In this document: piece after piece, positions 1,307-59,348 of the stretch
Numbering within the stretch: position 1 is the first letter of the stretch
Layout of the letters: each line of letters opens with the position of its first letter
DNA from: a virus
Lineage: Duplodnaviria; Heunggongvirae; Uroviricota; Caudoviricetes
IMG/VR virus record: IMGVR_UViG_2721755711_000002
DNA: 64,000 nt
Reading direction: 5' to 3' (one strand)
Notes under the pieces: model-generated
What the model saw: only the letters and a program-made list of their open reading frames with translations
The model's database searches: none
What the model was told of the DNA's origin: nothing
Position numbers and translations under genes: made by a program

Positions 1307-3814
1307 TTAAAAATCAACCGGATTCGGGATCAGTTTTTGCCAGATTGCTGAAACGTATTTTGCCTGGTGACGGGCGTCATCCAGTGCATTGTGGCGCACG
1401 CCTTCGAATGGAATAACGGTTTTGGCATCAAAGTCGATTGTTTTTCCCAGCTCAACGATTGTGCGTACATCGCGATCGTTGTGGTAGCGCCACGGGCAGG
1501 GGATCTCCAGACGTTCGTATGAGGTGCGCAAAATTGCGTTATCGAAAGTTGCACCATTACCCCATACCTGAACGAATTTTTCATCTGAGTATTCGTTGAT
1601 GAACTCCCGAAACCGCGAAAGGGCATCCTTCAGTTTTACCTGGTCTGTTAAAATGGCAGCTCTGGCTTCACTGGACTGCTTCAGCCACCATTTGATGGTT
1701 CCACCGTCAGGAGCAGCCCCTGTATTCATTGCGTCAGTCAGACTGATAACGATATAAAATACTGGCCCGATTTCCCCTGTTTGTGGGTCGAAGAAAACCG
1801 CACCAATAACCACGATGGGCGCATTGGTGTTGGTTCCCATTGTTTCAAGGTCGATCATCAGGTGGTACCACACTCTGCTGGTGGATGTGATAACGTGATG
1901 ACCGTTCACCACAATTAAGGGATCTGCCGTCTCACCAGTTTCATTATCGCTGGTGTGATGCTGATCGTTACCAGCATTCTCATTGTTCGGATGTTCAGCG
2001 CCTTCCATTTCCTCCGGATCATCTTCCTGAACTTCAGCCTGATTTTTTTCATCGAATGTTTCCTGGTATGTTGCGTTGCCCATCACCGCGCCACAGTCAG
2101 GACAGTTGCCGCCGCCGGTCTGACTGCAGGTGGTGCAGACTTTTTCCGGTTCTTGTTGCTCTTTTGGTTCAGGCTGTTTCGTTTCTGGCTCGTTTTGTAA
2201 CGCATTTGGGCTGTTTTGTTCCGCTTTCTGGTCGTTTTGTAACGCATTTGGGCTGTTTTGTTCCGCTTTCTGGTCGTTTTGTTCCGATTCGGGCTGGTTC
2301 TGGTTCACAGAATCGCGGGTTTCAATCCCCTTAACCCATTTCGGATCATTCGGGTCGCTAATTCCGTCAACGAACTCACCGCGATGGACTGCCAGTATTT
2401 TGTCGGCATCAGGCTGGTTGATATTGGCTGCCTGCATAATTTTGTTTACTTCGTCAGCGGTAACTTTTACCTGTTTAACTGGATCTACCTGTTCCTGAGT
2501 ATCCAGCGATTGCGTGTCCTGGTGATGTTCAGTTGTATCCGGCTCCATTGCTTCGGCCGTTGCCTGTTCATCTGCCATTGCGTCAGACGGTTGTGATTTT
2601 TCCTCATTATTTTTTTCTTCTTCTGTTTCGCGTTCAGCAGCCAGTTCGCGGTTAACTTCTTCCAGGATATCTTTTTCCGGTGTATGTCGTGCAGCAGTGA
2701 GAGTTTCCTTGCTGGGGTTCTCGTGATCAGTCTCCGTTAAGTGGGCGTTGATATACCCCTGAAGGCGTCCCGGGTAGTGATAAAACTCAGGGTGAGCGCT
2801 CCGGATAAGTGCAAAAATAGCGGCGCGGGAATAATCCAGAATACCCGGGGTTGCGCGAAGTGCTGCGGACCATTCTTTGAACGGACTTTCTCTTTTCAGG
2901 ACGATTTCTTTTGCGCGACGATAAACGCTACCCGGAATTTCATAAATATTAAAATCCATCGGAAGTGTGGCTGCTGCAGTCTCCACATCCAGCGTATCGA
3001 AGGTGTGTACTAAATTCGGATTGCGATCGGTTTTGTTCCCGCCACCGGCATTTGCACCGGAAGCCGTACGGGTGATACGCGAAACACGATTTCCTTTCAT
3101 CCACTCTTTTGTCAGCAGACCGCGATCGGTGTAGTCGGCGTCCAGGTATGCTTCGATAAAAGAAGTTATCAGTCCCAGGTCCGAATTTACGGGGGCGGGG
3201 AAAACTTTGTCAGTGTCTCGCACCAGTTTGTGGAGATCGCGAATCTCCAGCGGTTCGAGTTGCGCTGCTTTATTTGAGATAGCCAGCGCGGTAACGGCGG
3301 GAAGTTTTTCATCCTGTGCGTTATGTAATGCGCGCAGTTCGTCCCGCGAAACGTGTGTGATCGGTTTTTCGCTGCCGTGCTGTGCCAGCCATCGAACAGG
3401 CAGAATCTGACCTGAAACCGGCAGGAGCATGTTCTCCTCAATCTCAGTCATGTCTTCGCCGTTGACGTTGGTATTGTCAGTGTTGGCTGGTTTATCCTGA
3501 ACAGAGGGCGAGGGCGCGATAAGTACCATTGTGATACCATCTTCCCCGCCTTTTTCGTATCGGTTGCAGAATTCGGTATCAAACACGCCTTCCGGAGGAA
3601 GGTCATTCACAACGGGTAAATGGACGCGAACAGGTTTTTTAAAGTCGTCTTCATCATAATCGTTGTCATCCATTGCGGTAATGCAGCGGGAGATGGCAAC
3701 AGATAATTTTTTTGCTGTAGTCCAGTAAAAACCACCTTTAATTCCAAGGCGTTTTCTGACTTTGTCATTTTTTGCTTCACAATATAATGCAAATTCTTCT
3801 TTATCAGTGCTCAT
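1307..3814 (-). CDS. Large exonuclease with C-terminal DnaQ-like (DEDDh) 3'-5' exonuclease domain and acidic repeat-containing N-terminal region
   Basis: 835-aa ORF; C-terminal motifs MIDLETMG, WGNGATFDNAIL, HNALDDARH match Exo I/II/III of DEDDh nucleases; sits in the lambda exo position. Confidence 0.7.
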   Translation of the reverse strand: MSTDKEEFALYCEAKNDKVRKRLGIKGGFYWTTAKKLSVAISRCITAMDDNDYDEDDFKKPVRVHLPVVNDLPPEGVFDTEFCNRYEKGGEDGITMVLIAPSPSVQDKPANTDNTNVNGEDMTEIEENMLLPVSGQILPVRWLAQHGSEKPITHVSRDELRALHNAQDEKLPAVTALAISNKAAQLEPLEIRDLHKLVRDTDKVFPAPVNSDLGLITSFIEAYLDADYTDRGLLTKEWMKGNRVSRITRTASGANAGGGNKTDRNPNLVHTFDTLDVETAAATLPMDFNIYEIPGSVYRRAKEIVLKRESPFKEWSAALRATPGILDYSRAAIFALIRSAHPEFYHYPGRLQGYINAHLTETDHENPSKETLTAARHTPEKDILEEVNRELAAERETEEEKNNEEKSQPSDAMADEQATAEAMEPDTTEHHQDTQSLDTQEQVDPVKQVKVTADEVNKIMQAANINQPDADKILAVHRGEFVDGISDPNDPKWVKGIETRDSVNQNQPESEQNDQKAEQNSPNALQNDQKAEQNSPNALQNEPETKQPEPKEQQEPEKVCTTCSQTGGGNCPDCGAVMGNATYQETFDEKNQAEVQEDDPEEMEGAEHPNNENAGNDQHHTSDNETGETADPLIVVNGHHVITSTSRVWYHLMIDLETMGTNTNAPIVVIGAVFFDPQTGEIGPVFYIVISLTDAMNTGAAPDGGTIKWWLKQSSEARAAILTDQVKLKDALSRFREFINEYSDEKFVQVWGNGATFDNAILRTSYERLEIPCPWRYHNDRDVRTIVELGKTIDFDAKTVIPFEGVRHNALDDARHQAKYVSAIWQKLIPNPVDF
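2191..2274 (-). repeat. Perfect in-frame 42-bp tandem duplication (2 copies) inside the exonuclease gene
   Basis: cgttttgtaacgcatttgggctgttttgttccgctttctggt occurs twice back to back; encodes duplicated 14-aa unit QNDQKAEQNSPNAL. Confidence 0.85.
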
Positions 3815-18379: not shown

Positions 18380-19921
18380 ATGCCAACAGTTCCAATTTCT
18401 ATGAGAAAACTTAAAGAAATTCTTAGGCTTAAATACGGTGTTGGACTCAGCCATCGACAAATTGGTCGTAGTCTTGCAATCTCCCCTTCCGTTGTATCCA
18501 GATATGCTAATCGGGCGGCTCAACTTGGCATAAAGCAGTGGCCCTTACCTACAGGATGGGATGATACAAAACTAAAACATGCGTTCCTTCAGACCCAGGT
18601 TAAGATGAAGAAGCACTCTCTGCCTGACTGGGCTACAGTACACCGGGAACTGCGTAATAAATGCGTGACGCTGCAGCTACTCTGGGAAGAATACTGTGAG
18701 CGTAATCCAGGCGGTTTTTACAGCTATAACCATTACTGCCGGATGTACCGTGAATGGCTCAAAACCACTTCACCATCAATGCGTCAGGTACATAAAGCTG
18801 GCGAAAAACTTTTCGTTGATTACTGTGGACCTACCGTTGGCGTTACCGACCCTGAGACCGGAGAAATAAGAACTGCTCAGGTCATCGTAGCTGTTCTCGG
18901 GGCATCAAGTTACACATGGGCAGAGGCCACCTGGTCTCAGCAGCTTGAAGACTGGGTGATGAGTCATGTTCGCTGCTTCCAGTGGTTGGGTGGCGTTCCT
19001 GAACTTGTTGTTCCGGACAATCTGAAAAGCGCCACATCCAGGGCATGTAAGTATGATCCTGACGTTAACCCTACCTACCAGCAGATGCTTGAGCATTATA
19101 ATGTCGCAGTTTTGCCTGCGCGGCCACGTAAACCGAAAGATAAAGCCAAAGCTGAAGTTGGCGTTCAGGTTGTTGAACGCTGGATCATGGCCCGAATCAG
19201 GCATGAGATCTTCTACAGCCTTGCATCGCTTAATCAGCGCATTCGGGAGTTGCTGGAAAGACTGAATAACAAAATAATGCAGAAGTTGGGTTATTCACGT
19301 GCAGAACTCTTCATCCAGCTTGATAAACCCGCACTGAAGCCTCTTCCTGAAGCCAGTTACAGTTACACCCTGGTGAAGAAAGTCAGAGTTCATGCCGATT
19401 ACCACGTGGAAATCGACAAACATTACTACTCGGTTCCATGTTCGCTGTTAGGCCAGCAACTGGAAGCATGGATCTCCGGAGAACTGGTAAGACTCTTCAA
19501 TCAGGGGCAGGAGGTTGCTGTGCACCCGCGCAAGCGTACTTATGGCTACAGTACCCGCAACGAGCACATGCCTGAAGCTCATCGACAGCATGCCACCTGG
19601 ACGCCAGAGCGTCTTCTGGAATGGGCGGGGCACATAGGCAGTGAAACTCATAGTTATGTGCTTCATATACTGAACTCTCGTCCACATCCGGAACAAAGCT
19701 ATCGCTTCTGCCTTGGACTCCTGAACCTTCATAAAAAATACAGTAAAGCCAGACTTAATGCAGCATGTGCAAGAGCTCTGAAAACAAAGGTATGGCGTCT
19801 GTCAGGTATTAAATCGATCCTGGAAAAAGGTCTGGATAAACAACCTGTTCAGGATCCAAAACCAGATCTGTTATCCACGATGGAACACGAAAACGTACGC
19901 GGCAGTGAGTATTACCACTGA
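18380..19921 (+). CDS. istA: IS21-family transposase IstA
   Basis: 513-aa ORF with N-terminal HTH and DDE integrase-like core. Confidence 0.85.
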   Translation: MPTVPISMRKLKEILRLKYGVGLSHRQIGRSLAISPSVVSRYANRAAQLGIKQWPLPTGWDDTKLKHAFLQTQVKMKKHSLPDWATVHRELRNKCVTLQLLWEEYCERNPGGFYSYNHYCRMYREWLKTTSPSMRQVHKAGEKLFVDYCGPTVGVTDPETGEIRTAQVIVAVLGASSYTWAEATWSQQLEDWVMSHVRCFQWLGGVPELVVPDNLKSATSRACKYDPDVNPTYQQMLEHYNVAVLPARPRKPKDKAKAEVGVQVVERWIMARIRHEIFYSLASLNQRIRELLERLNNKIMQKLGYSRAELFIQLDKPALKPLPEASYSYTLVKKVRVHADYHVEIDKHYYSVPCSLLGQQLEAWISGELVRLFNQGQEVAVHPRKRTYGYSTRNEHMPEAHRQHATWTPERLLEWAGHIGSETHSYVLHILNSRPHPEQSYRFCLGLLNLHKKYSKARLNAACARALKTKVWRLSGIKSILEKGLDKQPVQDPKPDLLSTMEHENVRGSEYYH

Positions 19922-19932
19922 TACGGGATCCA

Positions 19933-20682
19933 ATGATGAATCATCTTTACGAACAACTGACCGCACTTAAACTCACCGGCTTCCGTGATGCGCTTAAAAA
20001 GCAACTTGCTCAGCCGGGCACATACCAGGAGCTGGGCTTCGAAGAACGCCTGTCATTACTGACAGCAGAAGAACTAACCTGCCGTGAAAACAGGAAGGCA
20101 GAGCGTCTGATCAAACATGCACGGTTCAGACTTAATGCTGAGTTATCAAAGCTGGATTATCGTAACAATAGAGGGCTGGACAGGGCCCTCATCCGTTCAC
20201 TCAGTCAGGGAAACTGGTTAACCCTGAAACAAAATATTTTACTGACCGGGGCCACCGGCAGCGGTAAAACGTTCCTGGCATGTGCACTTGGTCATAATGC
20301 CTGCCGACAGGGATACAAGGTCTACTATTATCGCCTTAAAGCGCTGATGGAACAGTGCTATCAGGGGCATGCTGATGGAAGATACAGCAAACTTTTGACC
20401 AGGCTGAATAATAGCGATCTGCTGCTTCTGGATGACTGGGGGCTGGAACCTCTCTCATCAGAACAGCGTAGCGACCTGCTGGAAATAGTGGATCTGATGT
20501 ACCAACGAGGCTCAATCATCGTAGTGAGCCAGTTGCCGGTGGAAAACTGGTACAAAATGATCGGAGACTCCACACATGCGGATGCCATCCTAGATCGACT
20601 GGTTCATGGCAGTATCAAGATCGAACTTAAAGGAGAATCAATGCGGAAAATACAATCTCCGTTGACCGAAGGAGATCAGTGA
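19933..20682 (+). CDS. istB: IS21-family helper ATPase IstB
   Basis: 249-aa ORF with Walker A LTGATGSGKT and Walker B LLLLDDWG. Confidence 0.9.
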   Translation: MMNHLYEQLTALKLTGFRDALKKQLAQPGTYQELGFEERLSLLTAEELTCRENRKAERLIKHARFRLNAELSKLDYRNNRGLDRALIRSLSQGNWLTLKQNILLTGATGSGKTFLACALGHNACRQGYKVYYYRLKALMEQCYQGHADGRYSKLLTRLNNSDLLLLDDWGLEPLSSEQRSDLLEIVDLMYQRGSIIVVSQLPVENWYKMIGDSTHADAILDRLVHGSIKIELKGESMRKIQSPLTEGDQ

Positions 20683-20836
20683 AGGTAATTTAAAAACGGT
20701 TCTGTGAAAGTGACACGAACCGATCTCCATCGATGTTACTCACCGATCTCCTTCACGGTAATACGCACATAATAAAAAAATCCAGAATAAAGCGCAAAAT
20801 AAGGTGATACAGCACTTTATTTGACCACTTACGTTT

Positions 20837-21403
20837 TTATTCACTGATGGGCAGACTTCTGATGGTGTTCAGGTCATCCAGCCCCGCCAGTGTTTCCTTC
20901 ATCTCCCGCTGACGGCGATAAATCTCGTCATTGCGATCGACCTGCGCCTGAACCATTGCAGTAAGCAGTTCATCCAGTTGTTGCATTGACAACTTTACCT
21001 GCTGATTTTCCGCATCACCCCATACCATAGTTTTCCGTGCCGTGACTGATTTTGCTGACATCACCACCGGATAAAGGCGGGCCATTGAATCCGGTCCCCC
21101 GTTCCAGCTATGACCGTTCCATTCAAAAATGAATGGCTGCGCCTCCTGCTCTGTACGCCATGCTTCAATTTCCCGGCGTTTGGCTGCTTTTGCTGCTTCC
21201 AGCATCTCTGACGTGACGGTGAACGGCGTTATTTCTCCCCACTTGCCGCTTTGCAGTTCCTGCCAGACTCGCTGCCCTGTCTCTGCTGTATCCGTGGCAG
21301 TTGCCGTATACGGAACCGGTTCATCCATGCCATCAAACAACACCCCACAGTCAATCGCGCCATTTTCAAGATAACGCGCATTTTCGATGCGTTTTATTTC
21401 CAT
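20837..21403 (-). CDS. Tail fibre assembly protein (Tfa-like chaperone)
   Basis: ~189-aa ORF from MEIKRIENARYLENG, directly after side tail fibre gene. Confidence 0.65.
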   Translation of the reverse strand: MEIKRIENARYLENGAIDCGVLFDGMDEPVPYTATATDTAETGQRVWQELQSGKWGEITPFTVTSEMLEAAKAAKRREIEAWRTEQEAQPFIFEWNGHSWNGGPDSMARLYPVVMSAKSVTARKTMVWGDAENQQVKLSMQQLDELLTAMVQAQVDRNDEIYRRQREMKETLAGLDDLNTIRSLPISE

Positions 21404-21410
21404 AAAACAC

Positions 21411-22835
21411 CTACGCAATACGTATGAACAAACCAATCATGACACTGGCTGACCCGGCAGACCCGAGCCCGTCACCTGACAGTGCCCGATATGACCCCGG
21501 CATACCACCACCAGAACCCCGCACATATACGGAAACGCTGCCGTTATATCCAACCCCGCTACCGGTCGTGCCGTGACACATAAATTCAACCGCGCTCAGG
21601 CGTGACCCCGGATAGCTGTAACCGCGTTTTATCCGGCGGTCGGTGTCTGCGTCTCCCTTACCGTTATAAGCCGCCAGTACAAGACTGCCTGCACCGTACC
21701 AGCCGTCCGTGGTACCGGGAGCAATACCGGACAGAAGAGAGATAATGTCCTGTGAGGTCATCTTCAGATTTTCCCAGCCAGTCAGATAACCATTACCTGT
21801 TGTCCAGTAGCGGTTGTAATAAACATCGCCATTAATACCGTAGAAAATAATGGCCTTTGCTGTATATCGCGGCTCCGGTGGATTATTGCGTGCCTCAACC
21901 CACCGGATGCGGACCATCCCGTTAAACAACACACCTCCGGATATGATTTTACTGTCACCCTCAACAAAATATTCACCCGGCGTCGCATTCCTTACCCAGG
22001 ACAGAAAATCATCCTCTGTGTTAAAACGGATACGCTCTGCGGGCAAAAAAATATGCCCAAAACCAAATGCGCCAGGTGTCGCCAGACGACCTTCAGTCCG
22101 GTCACGAATGTCGCTCTGTGGCGTCATTGTGGCTGCGCTTTTCAGTCCAAGATTATCACGGGATTCCTGCTGAGCCTCTTCACCTTCATCAGCCAGCTCT
22201 GATAAACGATTCGCCGTTTTCAGTGTCGCAGATAACGCAGTATCAATATCTGCTCTGGCCTGCTCTGCACCGGATGCGGCCTTTTTCGCGGCTTCAGCAT
22301 CCTGCCTGACCTCCGCGGCGGTATCCTCAACCCGTGAGGCCAGAGTTTCGACCTGTTGTTTACCCTCCGCAACCGCGTCGGCGTTCTGCTGTACGTCTTT
22401 CGCCAGCGCCTGACAGTCGGCCTTAATCTGCTGTGCATCAGTGGCGTGTTGTCCTGCCTGTTGTTCGCTGCCAGCGGCGGCTTCTGCGCTCTGCTGCGCC
22501 TGTGCCACCATTTCCTCAAAGCGTTTTACCACGTCGGGTTTGAGGTCGCCTTCATCGGGGGCGGTCAGAAAGTCGTTCAGCGTGCCGGGCTTTGAATCGT
22601 CATAAACAGCAATATTCCCCACGCAACATTTCGGGCCGTTCTTTTGTTTTATATGAACGGCATATTTTCCTGTCTGCGCTTCAAAGGCATACTGTCCCGC
22701 CGCATCGGTTTCAATAACCGCAAATGATTCAATAACCACTTCACTGGTATTAACCAGTGCATCTAAATAAATTTTGCATTCCGCCATCGGAACGCCAGTG
22801 CCATTAACAAGTGCACCTGAAATTAATACAGACAT
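21411..22835 (-). CDS. Side tail fibre protein (lambda Stf-like N-terminal domain)
   Basis: 474-aa ORF; N-terminus aligns with lambda Stf (ISG.L.DGTG...YEDSQPGTLNDFL). Confidence 0.8.
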   Translation of the reverse strand: MSVLISGALVNGTGVPMAECKIYLDALVNTSEVVIESFAVIETDAAGQYAFEAQTGKYAVHIKQKNGPKCCVGNIAVYDDSKPGTLNDFLTAPDEGDLKPDVVKRFEEMVAQAQQSAEAAAGSEQQAGQHATDAQQIKADCQALAKDVQQNADAVAEGKQQVETLASRVEDTAAEVRQDAEAAKKAASGAEQARADIDTALSATLKTANRLSELADEGEEAQQESRDNLGLKSAATMTPQSDIRDRTEGRLATPGAFGFGHIFLPAERIRFNTEDDFLSWVRNATPGEYFVEGDSKIISGGVLFNGMVRIRWVEARNNPPEPRYTAKAIIFYGINGDVYYNRYWTTGNGYLTGWENLKMTSQDIISLLSGIAPGTTDGWYGAGSLVLAAYNGKGDADTDRRIKRGYSYPGSRLSAVEFMCHGTTGSGVGYNGSVSVYVRGSGGGMPGSYRALSGDGLGSAGSASVMIGLFIRIA

Positions 22836-53931: not shown

Positions 53932-54171
53932 TCATTGCCATACGACGGTGCAGCCGTCGATACAGGATGTTTTCACCACGCGGCGCAGGCCGCTGAATGT
54001 CTGGATGATTTCCGTTACCGGCCATACAGGACCACCCACAGGCGGGCAGGCATAAACCACAGGTAAACGGTGATGTTGCCCCGTTACACGACCGCCGGTG
54101 GTGTGGATGGCCACACGGGCACGGGAACGGACGGCATTAATGGTCTGCTTTTCCATCATTTTGTTCTCCAT
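53932..54171 (-). CDS. Hypothetical early protein
   Basis: 79-aa ORF just downstream of B. Confidence 0.4.
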   Translation of the reverse strand: MENKMMEKQTINAVRSRARVAIHTTGGRVTGQHHRLPVVYACPPVGGPVWPVTEIIQTFSGLRRVVKTSCIDGCTVVWQ

Positions 54172-55064
54172 CAGTGAATTAACATTTCTGAATATTTATC
54201 AATGGCCTGCACACTGACCGGTGCATCGCTGATATCACAAATCCGGTACACACCACGCGCCAGCTTGAACAGACGACGGGCATTACCCAGCGAACGTGTG
54301 TAAAGTGCCTCACCAATTTCCGGGTCCGCCGCTTCCGGCATCATGTCTGTGGCAATCTTGTTAAAATCTTCCTGCGTCAGCGTATCGCCCAGGTTAAGCG
54401 CCAGCGCCACGCGGCTGTATAATTGAGCGAACTCACCACAACGGCCCTTAAGGTTAATCAGAAGGTGAGGCATACCCGCCAGGACAATCCCGATACCCGC
54501 TTTGTCATGCAGACGGCGCAATACCTCCAGTGCACGATAGGGGAGCAGTTCAGCCTCATCCACCATCAGCAGACGACCTGACCCACGCAGTTCACGCACA
54601 CAGGCATCAATCTTCTCGCGAATATCGCCGTGAACCTTTATGCCCAACTGGCGGCACAGTTCATCGAGTAACTTTCTGGCCGTATAGCCAATATCGGCTT
54701 CAATGAGCACTACATCCCGGTTTCTGGCGGCATATTCACTCAGAATCATGCTTTTACCCAGGCCCGCCGCGCCATACAGAACGCAAATATCACACTCCAG
54801 ATGGGCGTAGGTCAGTACTTCCAGCCCTTTGGCAGCCATGCCGGTGGTGACAAATCGCACTTTAATACGGCGGTTGTTTTCCTTTTCCCATTCACGGGTC
54901 ACAAAGGCAGAAATGCGTTCTTCAATATCAGCCATATCGCCCTGATATTTGCCCTGCAAATACTGGTTGATAACAGCGCTGCTACGACCAATAGCACGGG
55001 CAACGTGGGTCTGCGTAAAGCCGCGACGGGCCATTACGTCATTTAATTGCGTAATTAAACTCAT
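54171..55064 (-). CDS. B: DNA transposition protein B (AAA+ ATPase, Mu B-like)
   Basis: 297-aa ORF with N-terminal HTH and Walker A GAAGLGKS; follows transposase A. Confidence 0.85.
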   Translation of the reverse strand: MSLITQLNDVMARRGFTQTHVARAIGRSSAVINQYLQGKYQGDMADIEERISAFVTREWEKENNRRIKVRFVTTGMAAKGLEVLTYAHLECDICVLYGAAGLGKSMILSEYAARNRDVVLIEADIGYTARKLLDELCRQLGIKVHGDIREKIDACVRELRGSGRLLMVDEAELLPYRALEVLRRLHDKAGIGIVLAGMPHLLINLKGRCGEFAQLYSRVALALNLGDTLTQEDFNKIATDMMPEAADPEIGEALYTRSLGNARRLFKLARGVYRICDISDAPVSVQAIDKYSEMLIH

Positions 55065-55082: not shown

Positions 55083-57125
55083 TTAACGATTATTTGTGCC
55101 GTTTTTCTTTAAATTGCGCTCACGGTCAGACACGAATAAATAAAGTTCTTCTTTTTCCTTTTTCTCCTGGCGTTCCAGTCCATATCCCAGATTAAACTCA
55201 GGTTTCTGCGTAATAGCCGGGGTAAGTTCGCGTTTAGCCTCTTCGATTTTCTGCGTGGCCCGTGCAATGCGGCCTCGGGCGCGTTTCTCCTGCTGCTGTT
55301 CGATAACGGCTTTCGGGAACGCATCGACCTTGTTACCGTTCCAGATGGCATCGCAGATATAAGAACCGTCCATTCGCCTGACAATCACGCTGTTTGCGTC
55401 GTGAATGTCGTAACAAACCCTGACTTCATTTCCGTGCTCTGCTGCCAGTTCTGTGGAGAAATAGATGTTTCTGAATAACACCACTTCACCGCGTCGCACC
55501 GTGCAGATGCTTTCCGGTCGGAACATTTCATGCAGTTCTTCCGGCGACAGCATGTCGATTTCAGCCTTTTGCTCTTTTATCAGTTTCCGGCGATACGCTG
55601 CCGGGCTGTAATGTTCGCCATCCTCTTTGCGGGGAAGGCTGCTGTGTGGTCGGTTGTTATACCGTTTCACCTCCAGCTCTATTGCGGCCAGCAGTTGCTC
55701 AAAGGTGGGGACTTCTCCCATCGCTTTAACCTGCCGTTTTGTCAGCTCTTTCCCTTTGTGGGTGGCCTTAATGGCTGACTGTGTGATGCGTTGCTGCATC
55801 ATCACCGTTTCCTTGTCTGCATTTTTTGAGCAGTACGTCTGGAAACTCAGGGCCACATCTTTGGGTATTCCTTTGTTTGCCCGTTCTATTACCCCGCGCC
55901 CCTGCGGGTTACCAGGTATCCCCGTGTGATGCTCCACACCCAGTCGGGGCAGAATCCCGGTAATATCGGCATCAAGCACCCGGTTTTTTTCACCGCCCCC
56001 GTTATCGGAGTAATAAATCAGCGGTATTCCGTGTTGTGACATGCCATGACGCAATGCATCAGCAACGGCTATCACGTTCTCCGACAGGGACAGCGACCAG
56101 CCCACAATAAAGCGTTGCCCCGCATCCATAACCAGCGTCACTTCTGGCCGGAATGTATTCCCGGTGGCGGGGCTGAATGCCATCAGTTTCATACAGTGAC
56201 CATCCCCGACCCATACCGCATTAACCGGTAATGTGCTCCAGTCGCGCCGCACAAAGGGATTGAGCGAACGCCAGGCTGAACCGGTGGAGCGGAAACGCTC
56301 CTTCACAATCACCGGGACGTTGCTTAACACCCGTCTTACTGCGTGAACTGAAGGCAGTGCTGCCAGCATTCCTGCGTCATTCGCGTGCTTTTCATGCCAC
56401 CAGGCTGAAAACTCGCGATACGCATATTCAACGGTCGGGCGCTTCCATGAGCGATAGAACATAAAGAAATCGCTCAACCACCAGACCTGCTCCCACGGTG
56501 TTCCCTTATGATGACCGGGAGCCAGTAACGCCAGTAACTGATTGGCATCACCGCGCGCCATCAACCAGGCGGAATACCATTCCTGCAAACTTCCCCAACT
56601 GACGCCAGTTCGCTTACCCTGTCTGGCGTTTGCAGTGCCTGCGGCCTCAATAATGCGGTCAGGTAACGCCCCCATGCGCACACCATCAATGATGTGTTTT
56701 ACTGCTGCCGTCCTGGACATTCCTGCGTATTCACGCAGTTTATGCACTTCGGTAGCCAGCAATATCCGCGCATCAGCGATGGCCTTTTGCTTGTCGGTCA
56801 GTGCCTGAACTTCGCGTAATGCCAGTTCCGGGCATTTGACCATCACTTCCAGTTCATCGCGAACGGTGACGTTTTTAACTGCCTTCTGCTCAACCACGGC
56901 GGGCAGTTGCGCATCTTCCAGAACCTGATGAGTCAGGCGCTTACGTAAAACTTTCTGCGCTTCAGTGGGCAGGCAGTCGATGTGATACTCGAATGCTTTG
57001 GTGCCTTCACGCTTGCGCTTCCATTCCGGGTGCGTCTCTGTGATCCGATTGAGCGTCCAGCGCACCCCCTGAACTGTACCGGGCAAACCAGGAAGACCGG
57101 CCAGCTCATTGGCTGAATAAAACAT
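55083..57125 (-). CDS. A: Mu-type DDE transposase A
   Basis: 680-aa ORF; N-terminus ANELAGLPGLPGT resembles MuA; ner-A-B order. Confidence 0.9.
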   Translation of the reverse strand: MFYSANELAGLPGLPGTVQGVRWTLNRITETHPEWKRKREGTKAFEYHIDCLPTEAQKVLRKRLTHQVLEDAQLPAVVEQKAVKNVTVRDELEVMVKCPELALREVQALTDKQKAIADARILLATEVHKLREYAGMSRTAAVKHIIDGVRMGALPDRIIEAAGTANARQGKRTGVSWGSLQEWYSAWLMARGDANQLLALLAPGHHKGTPWEQVWWLSDFFMFYRSWKRPTVEYAYREFSAWWHEKHANDAGMLAALPSVHAVRRVLSNVPVIVKERFRSTGSAWRSLNPFVRRDWSTLPVNAVWVGDGHCMKLMAFSPATGNTFRPEVTLVMDAGQRFIVGWSLSLSENVIAVADALRHGMSQHGIPLIYYSDNGGGEKNRVLDADITGILPRLGVEHHTGIPGNPQGRGVIERANKGIPKDVALSFQTYCSKNADKETVMMQQRITQSAIKATHKGKELTKRQVKAMGEVPTFEQLLAAIELEVKRYNNRPHSSLPRKEDGEHYSPAAYRRKLIKEQKAEIDMLSPEELHEMFRPESICTVRRGEVVLFRNIYFSTELAAEHGNEVRVCYDIHDANSVIVRRMDGSYICDAIWNGNKVDAFPKAVIEQQQEKRARGRIARATQKIEEAKRELTPAITQKPEFNLGYGLERQEKKEKEELYLFVSDRERNLKKNGTNNR

Positions 57126-57361
57126 TACGCCGCCTTACTGGCATACCGGCTTGGCCAGATCTCCGCAGGTTCCACACCAATAGCATCGGCTATGATGCGT
57201 TCATATTTAGGGCATGAGCGATACAGTGCATTTTTTAAAGAGTCTTTTTTTAGACCAGCGCGTTCAGAAAGTTCACGCAATGTAAAACCTTTGGTGTGCA
57301 CAGCGGCAACGATGTACTCGCGGTGCCAGTCTTTGTTCATTACTTCATTTCTAACCATCAT
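57125..57361 (-). CDS. ner: Ner-like DNA-binding regulator
   Basis: ~79-aa ORF with DWHREY and IWPSRY motifs shared with Mu Ner/Nlp. Confidence 0.8.
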   Translation of the reverse strand: MMVRNEVMNKDWHREYIVAAVHTKGFTLRELSERAGLKKDSLKNALYRSCPKYERIIADAIGVEPAEIWPSRYASKAA

Positions 57362-57543
57362 TAGGTTACCCTTAAAAGTTATCCGTGCGGATAACACCGC
57401 CGTGTTATCCCTTCGGATATAAGTATTGATCCATATGTAACCCATGTAAAGCAAAAATAGCCTTTTCTTTGTATTTTCTTTTTGCTTTTGGTCTTTATAT
57501 GGTTTTGTGATTGAAAATCAATTGGTTAAATAGGAAAGGAAAA
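57362..57543. promoter_or_regulatory. Divergent c/ner operator-promoter region
   Basis: AT-rich intergenic region with repeated CTTTT motifs between divergent ner and c genes. Confidence 0.4.
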
Positions 57544-58191: not shown

Positions 58192-58465
58192 ACGCCTCGT
58201 TTTGGCGGGGCGCATGCTGCTAACTAATCAGCAACAACCACATCAAAACAAAACCAAACAGGAAAAATAAGGAAACGGGTACAGATAAAGCCCGTTTTAA
58301 AAGCATTTAAAACACGATCAATTATCTGCCATTAATGATTAAAACAGTCCAGATTTGAGCGCAAAAAAATGTACTTTTGATCATTTTCTTCAAAACGATC
58401 CAGAATCGGTAAAATCTCTCACATCCTGCGCCACTCAAGGCTTATAGGCTCGTCCAGGCTGTTCT

Positions 58466-58496
58466 CACTCAGTCCAGAATTGATCACTACCCCACA
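58466..58496. other. Candidate Mu-like prophage left terminus (approximate)
   Basis: Repeated ATCCAGAAT-like motifs at 58341-58360, 58388-58409, 58466-58486; possible end ...TGATCA at 58486; expected distance from c gene. Confidence 0.2.
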
Positions 58497-58755
58497 GGTA
58501 ACAGAAGACGGTCGTCATGTTGAGGAAGTGCATGTCCTGGGGGATATGTACCGCCTGGAGTTCTATCCGCGTAACACTCATCTTGCAGCGAAGATTGAGT
58601 ATTGCCGGGACGGGAATATTCCGTGCATTCCTGTAGAAAAAGAGGATGAAGCCTACATCATCACACTGAACGGTGACACGGCGCGTTGTATCTGTCGTGG
58701 CGACAGTGAAGCCCGGAATGAAATAGCAAGATGTCGCGCCCATACAGATAAATAA
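58480..58755 (+). CDS. Hypothetical Cys-containing small protein; 5' end uncertain, possibly a gene remnant
   Basis: 91-codon ORF (TTG in track; internal ATG at MYRLEF) with own terminator. Confidence 0.35.
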   Translation: MITTPQVTEDGRHVEEVHVLGDMYRLEFYPRNTHLAAKIEYCRDGNIPCIPVEKEDEAYIITLNGDTARCICRGDSEARNEIARCRAHTDK

Positions 58756-58826: not shown

Positions 58827-59009
58827 ATGGAGAAGTATAAACGAATTCTGTTTAGGTTGACTATGAAAAACGGCCTTGAATTGAAAGCGCCTGTAACTGA
58901 TGACATCAGCAGAGCGGTGGCTTTTGCCATTAAGTGGGTGGCTGTCGGTATCGCTGTGTCTCCGATTCTGTATGGGATGGCAAAATTGATCATTGCTGTG
59001 AAATCGTAA
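58827..59009 (+). CDS. Small membrane protein
   Basis: 60-aa ORF with C-terminal hydrophobic helix; GGGAG site upstream. Confidence 0.35.
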   Translation: MEKYKRILFRLTMKNGLELKAPVTDDISRAVAFAIKWVAVGIAVSPILYGMAKLIIAVKS

Positions 59010-59026
59010 GTGGGGCAGGGGTAAAT

Positions 59027-59161
59027 ATGTCAGATAGCATTATAAAACTGGCGCGAATTCTCTGTGTGGTTGTTGGCCTTTCATTTTCAGCAATGTTGGT
59101 TGCCATTTTCATTTCCACCGCCTGGCGAGTATTGAGCTTATCCGGATTGATTGGTGGATAG
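59027..59161 (+). CDS. Small hydrophobic peptide (44 aa)
   Basis: Short ORF MSDSIIKLARILCVVVGLSF... directly upstream of lipoprotein gene. Confidence 0.25.
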   Translation: MSDSIIKLARILCVVVGLSFSAMLVAIFISTAWRVLSLSGLIGG

Positions 59162-59165
59162 TGAG

Positions 59166-59348
59166 ATGAAGCGAAAACACTGGACACACAGAATGCCGCG
59201 AACGGCGGCGAAATGGGTACTGGTAGCGATACTGGTGCCTTTTTTCCTGGTGGGATGCGTCAGCCTGGATAAGGCGCGCCAGCTTTTCGATACGGCTTCT
59301 CAGGTCTGCGAAATTGTCGACGGTGTTCGACAGTGTCTGCAGAGCTGA
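59166..59348 (+). CDS. Small lipoprotein, paralogue of 46162-46344
   Basis: 60-aa ORF; lipobox FLVGC; mature-part motifs QLFD.A..VC.I.DG.RQC shared with paralogue. Confidence 0.55.
   Translation: MKRKHWTHRMPRTAAKWVLVAILVPFFLVGCVSLDKARQLFDTASQVCEIVDGVRQCLQS

Follow-up and report, generated by a model that had tools for sequence, protein, structure and literature searches.

Putative transposase-binding sites in the left terminus of a Mu-like prophage lodged in a lambdoid prophage and deprived of its right tip

Genes and repeated motifs at the locus

The DNA analyzed here is a viral stretch of 64,000 nucleotides (hereafter, the window), in which genes for transposition and its regulation adjoin three similar sequence motifs (table 1). 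The predicted transposase combines a Mu-type N-terminal DNA-binding domain, a DDE core, and the Mu C-terminal domain, with PF02316 and PF09299 exceeding the Pfam cut-offs and rve matching weakly, and it is 22% identical to MuA over the aligned core. Its AlphaFold model (mean pLDDT of 70, with 80-90 in the domains) retrieved the Mu transpososome as the top PDB match (4FCY, E = 2e-14, ~580 columns), followed by TnsB transposases. The gene for the MuB-like protein comes directly after the transposase gene, and both are found, together with the Ner-like gene, on the minus strand and divergent from the repressor gene. The repressor itself, which the original prediction had treated as a homolog of Mu c, is of the CI type and exhibits no similarity to Mu c. 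Additionally, the intergenic region between the repressor and ner genes (57380-57421) harbors the palindromes GTTATCCGTGCGGATAAC and GTTATCCCTTCGGATA, which constitute candidate operators and perhaps a transposition enhancer.

Table 1. Coordinates of the features discussed, in positions of the window
Feature	Position	Strand	Remarks
ISEc12 (IS21 family, istA and istB)	18219-20769	+	right boundary ambiguous within 20766-20769
Right-end remnant	20767-20836	+	homology to the intact right end of L023 stops at 20767
R3-like candidate site	20779-20799	-	TTTTGCGCTTTATTCTGGATT; inverted relative to R1/R2; 17.6 bits, rank 3
MuB-like AAA+ transposition protein	54171-55064	-	Pfam AAA_22, TniB; PHROG 296 (DNA transposition protein), E = 4e-98
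MuA-family DDE transposase, 680 aa	55083-57125	-	Pfam Mu-transpos_C, HTH_Tnp_Mu_1; PHROG 310, E = 1e-197
Ner-like winged-helix regulator	57125-57340	-	Pfam HTH_35, E = 7e-26; PHROG 769
CI-type repressor, 215 aa	57544-58191	+	Pfam Phage_CI_repr; PHROG 3037 (transcriptional repressor); transcribed toward the left end
L3-like candidate site	58346-58366	-	TTTTGCGCTCAAATCTGGACT; core 144-148 nt from the tip; 19.4 bits, top match of the window
L2-like candidate site	58397-58417	-	AGATTTTACCGATTCTGGATC; core 93-97 nt from the tip; weak match, lacking the GCG half
Conserved L1-L2 spacer	58423-58461	-	CAGCCTGG, AAGCCTTG, GTGGCGC, on to an invariant T at 58423
L1-like candidate transposase site	58471-58491	-	GGTAGTGATCAATTCTGGACT; core 19-23 nt from the tip; 18.1 bits, rank 2
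Left terminus of the Mu-like prophage	58496	-	last base of ...CCCCACA on the plus strand; placed with RM11911, L002, and other relatives
Lambdoid gene truncated by the insertion	58497-58755	+	RM11911 protein WP_040073338.1

The three motifs, AAAACAGTCCAGATTTG (58341-58357), AAAACGATCCAGAATCGG (58392-58409), and CAGTCCAGAATTGATCA (58470-58486), stand 150-295 nt past the repressor stop (58191), exactly where they had been predicted. They have the 8-mer TCCAGAWT in common (starts at 58348, 58399, and 58473), and a fourth copy at 20781-20788 corroborates the related motif that had been placed at 20780-20790. This 8-mer matches the window 13 times against 3.7 matches expected from shuffles, and, by a Poisson estimate at the window's own background rate, three copies would fall within 200 nt with a probability of ~4e-6. 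All 13 copies are confined to the plus strand, and the nine away from the phage ends are located where long ORFs run on the minus strand; this one-strand bias probably stems from codon usage (AAT-CTG-GAx on the coding strand) and not from function.

To score the sites we used a 21-nt weight matrix trained solely on sites of diverged relatives, with zero window sites in it. Out of 127,960 positions, the three highest ranks went to the L3-like, L1-like, and R3-like sites, in this order and all on the minus strand, with scores (table 1) above the best one reached over 20 shuffles (16.0 bits). The middle motif (58397-58417) scored -7.3 bits on the full matrix because it does not contain the GCG half-site. 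The alignment of six sites yielded a bipartite consensus of ~21 nt, TTnGCG-N5-WTTCTGGRC, whose WTTCTGGRC core is distinct from the ...CGAAA core of Mu, in agreement with the departure from the Mu consensus noted in the original prediction; no CGAAA-type sites are present in the ends.

The left terminus and its counterparts in related prophages

The prophage boundary emerged from two complementary comparisons. Escherichia coli RM11911 conserves the lambdoid prophage without the insertion and matches the window with 98% identity from 58497 on, and the Mu-like relative L002 matches the window up to 58496. The junction sequence reads ...CCCCACA/GGTAAC (the slash marking the boundary), so that the element begins 5'-TGTGGGG... 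when followed inward on the minus strand (TGTGGGGTAGTGATCAATTCTGG...). Using the 305 nt after the repressor gene as a query against 5,426 complete E. coli genomes, we obtained left-end matches in 59 of them; among the matches listed, all but one stop at 58496, with the exception stopping at 58495, and they sit in unrelated places such as eutC, ypdF, an RHS element, and a TonB receptor gene, among others. The same left boundary, 58496, was given by seven IMG/VR contigs. The comparison with the uninterrupted lambdoid relative thus places the junction within the interval 58300-58500 initially proposed for the left end. The more precise terminus suggested at ~58486 was discarded, given that the homology of the relatives runs on to 58496 and that of the empty lambdoid site starts at 58497, and the end was moved 10 nt further out.

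On the lambdoid side of the junction, all of the 85 residues encoded agree with positions 9-93 of WP_040073338.1, an RM11911 protein of 93 aa. The listed ORF at 58480-58755 borrows a TTG start and six codons from the Mu-like end; hence, the overlap between the terminus and this TTG-initiated ORF does exist as predicted, but the TTG is not a real start, the first eight codons of the lambdoid gene having been lost to the insertion. Past the insertion point, three ORFs for small membrane proteins (60, 41, and 60-65 aa) were observed at 58827-59348, which are common to phiP27-like and other lambdoid prophages and are annotated as hypothetical proteins only.

Nine relatives that are intact at both ends, with lengths of 34.2-38.0 kb, occupy nine different sites: eutC, alx, ypdF, an RHS element, a TonB receptor gene, yjfJ/K, trg/ydcA, the vicinity of yigF, and one more. 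Their tips are of the form TGT...ACA (TGTGGGGTAGTG...CGCGAAGTTACA; TGTGGGG...GAAGTTACA), and with these tips a 4-bp direct repeat flanks every one of the nine (TTTG, CACT, GGTG, AAAG, AATC, CTTC, CGCT, CATT, and CACG). The joined ypdF flanks, amounting to 186 nt with both repeat copies, align to an uninterrupted ypdF over 182 nt and are otherwise identical to it. A duplication of 5 bp with a shifted tip was also considered and rejected, as it fits only four of the nine relatives, those whose left-hand repeat copy is by chance preceded by an A. We therefore favor a duplication of 4 bp, since it fits all nine cases and the empty ypdF site is shorter by 4 nt.

The internal organization of these ends is equally regular. 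Read inward from the left tip, the cores of the relatives are found at 19, 93, and 144 nt (143 in two relatives), and the TCTGG cores of the window are located 19, 93, and 144 nt from its own left tip. In the right ends of the relatives, cores occur at 19 and 41 nt (22 nt apart), accompanied by an inverted copy at 67-70 nt. Such fixed positions sustain the resemblance, raised in the original prediction, to the spacing and position of the transposase-binding sites of a Mu left end. The arrangement extends to more distant hosts: across the compared relatives the transposase identity to that of the window spans 53% to 92%, with 71% in Salmonella, 76% in Yersinia, and 53% in Pantoea, and the left ends of these three all begin with TGTGGGG. 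The left cores are placed at 19/93/144 in E. coli, Salmonella, and Yersinia and at 19/91/142 in Pantoea.

An alignment of five genera revealed invariant blocks comprising the tip (1-7), L1 (14-23), GATTCTGG of L2 (90-97), TTTTTTGC (129-136), TCTGG of L3 (144-148), and a patch of the spacer (54-74). The cores fall within these blocks, and the sequence between them is variable with the exception of the one spacer patch. The L1-like core, invariant across the five genera, keeps the same tip distance as in the right ends of the intact relatives. The L2 core is likewise invariant, at position 93 in four genera and 91 in Pantoea, and it is this invariance and position, not the full-matrix score, that support the L2-like site. 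In the L3-like site, both TTTTTTGC and TCTGG are invariant. The motif is thus present in homologous phage ends, at fixed positions in four Enterobacterales genera, and a Pseudomonas phage (VW-6B) carries it at its right end; the records of this phage and of a Klebsiella phage are trimmed at the left, and the comparison with VW-6B covered its right end. Beyond these relatives, a search of the right-end remnant DNA against E. coli genomes gave no match, and an exact-pattern scan of one genome per species returned chance matches only, in unrelated taxa.

These comparisons bear directly on whether the motifs are coincidental repeats of AT-rich intergenic DNA or lambdoid sequence upstream of the ORF at 58480. 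The confinement of all TCCAGAWT copies to one strand denotes a compositional bias that could foster such repeats, whereas the Poisson estimate, the first three ranks in the weight-matrix scan, and the invariance of the cores in five genera speak strongly against coincidence; as for a lambdoid origin, RM11911 has none of the motif sequence, its homology starting at 58497. We regard both versions as refuted by these comparisons. Instead, we propose with a probability of about 0.88, from the sequence comparisons and the analogy with Mu, that the motifs are sites for a MuA-family transposase (L1/L2/L3-like) within the left end of a Mu-like prophage that lies inside a lambdoid prophage. The segment 58346-58496 would then be the left attachment end of a ~37.7-kb prophage (20767-58496, in reverse orientation) whose target was a small gene in the lambdoid prophage. 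By analogy with Mu, transposase monomers would bind the three left sites and three sites of the right end, bring both ends together, and cleave just past the terminal CA (58496, bottom strand), and the 3' ends would be joined to the target DNA with a 4-nt stagger.

The location of the repeats just downstream of the repressor gene might alternatively suggest that they act as operators or otherwise in regulation, bound by the repressor or by the Ner-like protein. Mu repressor and transposase do share DNA-binding specificity at operators (Pfam PF02316 description), which lends this reading some plausibility. The right ends, however, with every early promoter 35 kb away, carry the same site, its distance from the tip being equal at both ends, and scanning 58300-58500 uncovered no promoter-like or terminator-like signal. 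Moreover, the left-end sites are kept in the relatives E423 and Z1323 despite a different repressor and a swapped N-terminus of the transposase, and the palindromes between the repressor and ner genes are better operator candidates. A regulatory role at the repressor gene end is consequently judged very unlikely.

A function in packaging (a pac site) or in binding a host factor at the left end, in place of transposase binding, deserves only slightly more credence and is still improbable. The Mu packaging signal lies within the left end, and a conserved L1-L2 spacer is present in the window; yet a one-ended signal would be expected, and the TCTGG site occurs three times at each end. The spacer at 58423-58461 forms a separate block and hence a better pac candidate than the repeats. 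It corresponds to left-end positions 36-74, of which columns 54-74 are invariant across genera, and conserved blocks are found within E. coli too; the blocks invariant in five genera read A..CCTT..G.G.CGC.G..T. The spacer of E2348-type relatives, GCAAGCCTTGTGTGG, resembles GCAAGCCTGTAGTG in Mu's own L1-L2 spacer. One may guess that the spacer is a packaging or host-factor site, with the likeness to Mu perhaps due to chance.

Turning back to the putative transposase sites, we noted that E423 and Z1323 combine left ends of the TCTGGA type with right ends of the TCTGGG type. A co-variation of these variants with the DNA-binding region of the transposase was not supported, for the identity over residues 71-250 is 89-99% regardless of type and these two relatives are mixed. 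The specificity at the A-versus-G position after TCTGG may thus be loose. The transposases of E. coli E423 (L005) and Z1323CEC0011 (L009) are 99% identical to that of the window in residues 171-600 and 53% identical in the first 70 residues, and both strains carry a different repressor, as in the exchange of immunity modules known from Mu/D108.

The truncated right end

The opposite boundary of the prophage could be traced with the aid of IMGVR_UViG_2737471844_000002 (L023), whose right-end region is 98% identical to that of the window and whose right end is intact (TGTAACTTCGCGATTTTTTCTGGACTATTTAGCGCTTTATTTTGAACGGTTGACATAATAAAAAAAATCCAGAATAAAGCGC...). In L023, the site that matches the 20781 motif lies 67-72 nt from the right tip, and the match to the window holds only from 20767 inward; therefore, we interpret the 20781 motif as an inverted R3-like site. 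It shares its strand with the left-end motifs because, rather than a terminal inverted repeat, it is the candidate inverted third site of the right end. Missing from this end are the outer 51 nt, comprising the tip, R1, and R2, and no R1- or R2-like match was found elsewhere in the window.

The truncated end is abutted by ISEc12, which on its left interrupts the lambdoid holin gene (the reading frame runs into the insertion sequence at 18218). This copy is 99.8% identical to annotated ones, and the query stretch containing it was matched in 1,853 E. coli genomes. A piece of 59 nt (18160-18218), first regarded as unexplained sequence, proved to be a diverged allele of the holin, in frame. There is no target duplication around ISEc12, as its flanks, CTCGACGC and TAATAAAA, differ. 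In comparison with RM11911 (L001, roughly 1661-3003), the window lacks ~1.3 kb of lambdoid DNA, and the lysis genes absent in this region are those for a second holin and a GH108 endolysin.

From these boundaries we infer that the right end was lost through an IS-associated deletion or through recombination between two IS copies, either of which would have taken the outer 51 nt together with the ~1.3 kb of lambdoid lysis genes. Both the Mu-like and the lambdoid prophage would be crippled by one event. In Mu, there are three MuA sites per end, of which L1, R1, and R2 are enough to form a stable synaptic complex that can cleave and transfer strands, R3 being of no genetic importance (PMC3145075). 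The window copy possesses none of the intact right tip, R1, and R2 that a transposition-competent element has, and it should therefore be unable to transpose. Its left end would be intact but orphaned, and by analogy with Mu this copy is probably immobile.

In many E2348-type relatives, no more than a short piece remains of a Gin-like invertase gene next to the right end (L003 36324-36416, L004 36061-36153, and L005 6931-7023), adjoining an apparently invertible tail-fibre segment. The window lineage ends instead with a DUF4376 tail-fibre assembly gene (20837-21436).

Comparison with Mu and other transposable phages

We measured the cores of Mu on NC_000929 in the same way as those of the relatives' ends, which gave left cores at 22/127/167 and right cores at 22/44 with an inverted copy at 57. 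Mu and the family of the window both exhibit tips of the form TG...CA, three sites per end, an equal tip distance of L1 and R1, an L1 set apart from L2/L3, a distance of 22 nt between R1 and R2, and an inverted R3, along with a c-ner-A-B gene order adjoining the left end and scattered insertion sites. They differ in that the left cores of Mu (22/127/167) contrast with 19/93/144 in the window family and the site sequences are unrelated, in addition to a transposase with 22% identity, a CI-type repressor, a duplication of 4 bp instead of 5 bp, and no DNA similarity. A search of the left-end DNA against 50,697 phage records gave no match, and within these records no DNA similarity to Mu, D108, or SfMu-type phages was detected. 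Judged by its end DNA, its site, and its repressor, all of which differ, the prophage is outside the genus Muvirus (Mu, D108, and SfMu).

Nevertheless, the element conserves the attributes by which Mu-like transposable phages (the proposed 'Saltoviridae') are recognized, namely a MuA-type transposase, an adjacent MuB-like gene, TG...CA termini, several sites per end whose left and right arrangements differ (as a sequence pattern), and many unrelated insertion sites. The size of the target duplication departs from this picture: Mu makes duplications of 5 bp and B3 of 6 bp (PMC8705779), whereas the E2348/69-type relatives show 4 bp in place of the 5 or 6 bp of Mu-like phages. Within the searchable literature, we found no description of the end sites or the 4-bp duplication of the E2348/69 type, the only trace being a 4-bp repeat annotated in GenBank records of the related Sp18-like phages. 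Transposase-docking ends are an ordinary feature of such phages, and the prophage in the window is of the E2348/69 type; both the element and its family are already deposited in databases, annotated as Mu-type transposase prophages.

Another member of this family, the prophage in eutC of EPEC E2348/69, agrees with the window in its TGTGGGGTAGTG tip, in where its cores lie, and in its gene order. Transposases of this type are ~91% identical to that of the window, and relatives are present in ~1% of complete E. coli genomes. The two differ in the left-end DNA, where the window is ~75% identical and bears TCTGGAC/T as opposed to TCTGGGCG, and in the right tip, which the window copy does not have.

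Among isolated phages, the closest transposase is that of Pseudomonas phage VW-6B (MF975721), with 50% identity. Its right end contains ATTCTGGAC / ATTCTGGACTG at 19 nt from a TGT tip and a degenerate second core 22 nt further in; the host is another one, and the third right-end site is in direct orientation, unlike that of the window family. VW-6B was described as a siphovirus (PMC7556043).

Sp18-like Mu-like phages of Shiga-toxin-producing E. coli have also been found inserted into lambdoid prophages (PMC10132054). In the Sp18-like element of the Stx1a phage LC727895.1, the depositors annotated a 4-bp duplication, and accordingly a duplication of this size is not unique to the E2348/69 type. 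The same end architecture was observed in this element, including R1 and R2 at a distance of 22 nt and a ...GCG-N-core site, with a transposase ~45% identical and the core TTTGATACC in place of TTCTGGRC. It is fairly likely, in our estimation, that the E2348/69 and Sp18 types make up an enterobacterial clade of transposable phages set apart from Mu mechanistically by a transpososome that staggers the target cut by 4 nt and not 5, and by end sites that combine a common GCG half with a clade-specific core (TTCTGGRC or TTTGATACC). If true, these phages would provide natural orthogonal systems of the mini-Mu type, as well as a point of comparison for how MuA- and TnsB-type transposases set the stagger length.

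For a family that is already deposited, the present analysis adds precision on the exact tip, the definition of the sites, the right-end truncation, and the duplication of 4 bp. In the window, it fixes the exact prophage boundary, identifies the ORF at 58480 as an insertion artefact, and depicts a prophage probably stranded by the IS-associated loss of its right tip. For this Mu-like family as a whole, which is found in ~1% of complete E. coli genomes and also in Salmonella, Yersinia, and Pantoea, it offers a definition of the end sites (TTnGCG-N5-WTTCTGGRC; left at 19/93/144, right at 19/41 with an inverted one at ~68). The 4-bp scar matters for prophage-boundary callers that seek 5 or 6 bp. 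As a minor observation, the right tip annotated for the Sp18-like phage in LC727895.1 (L036, 1594-40930) reads ...GCGCTATA rather than ...CA.
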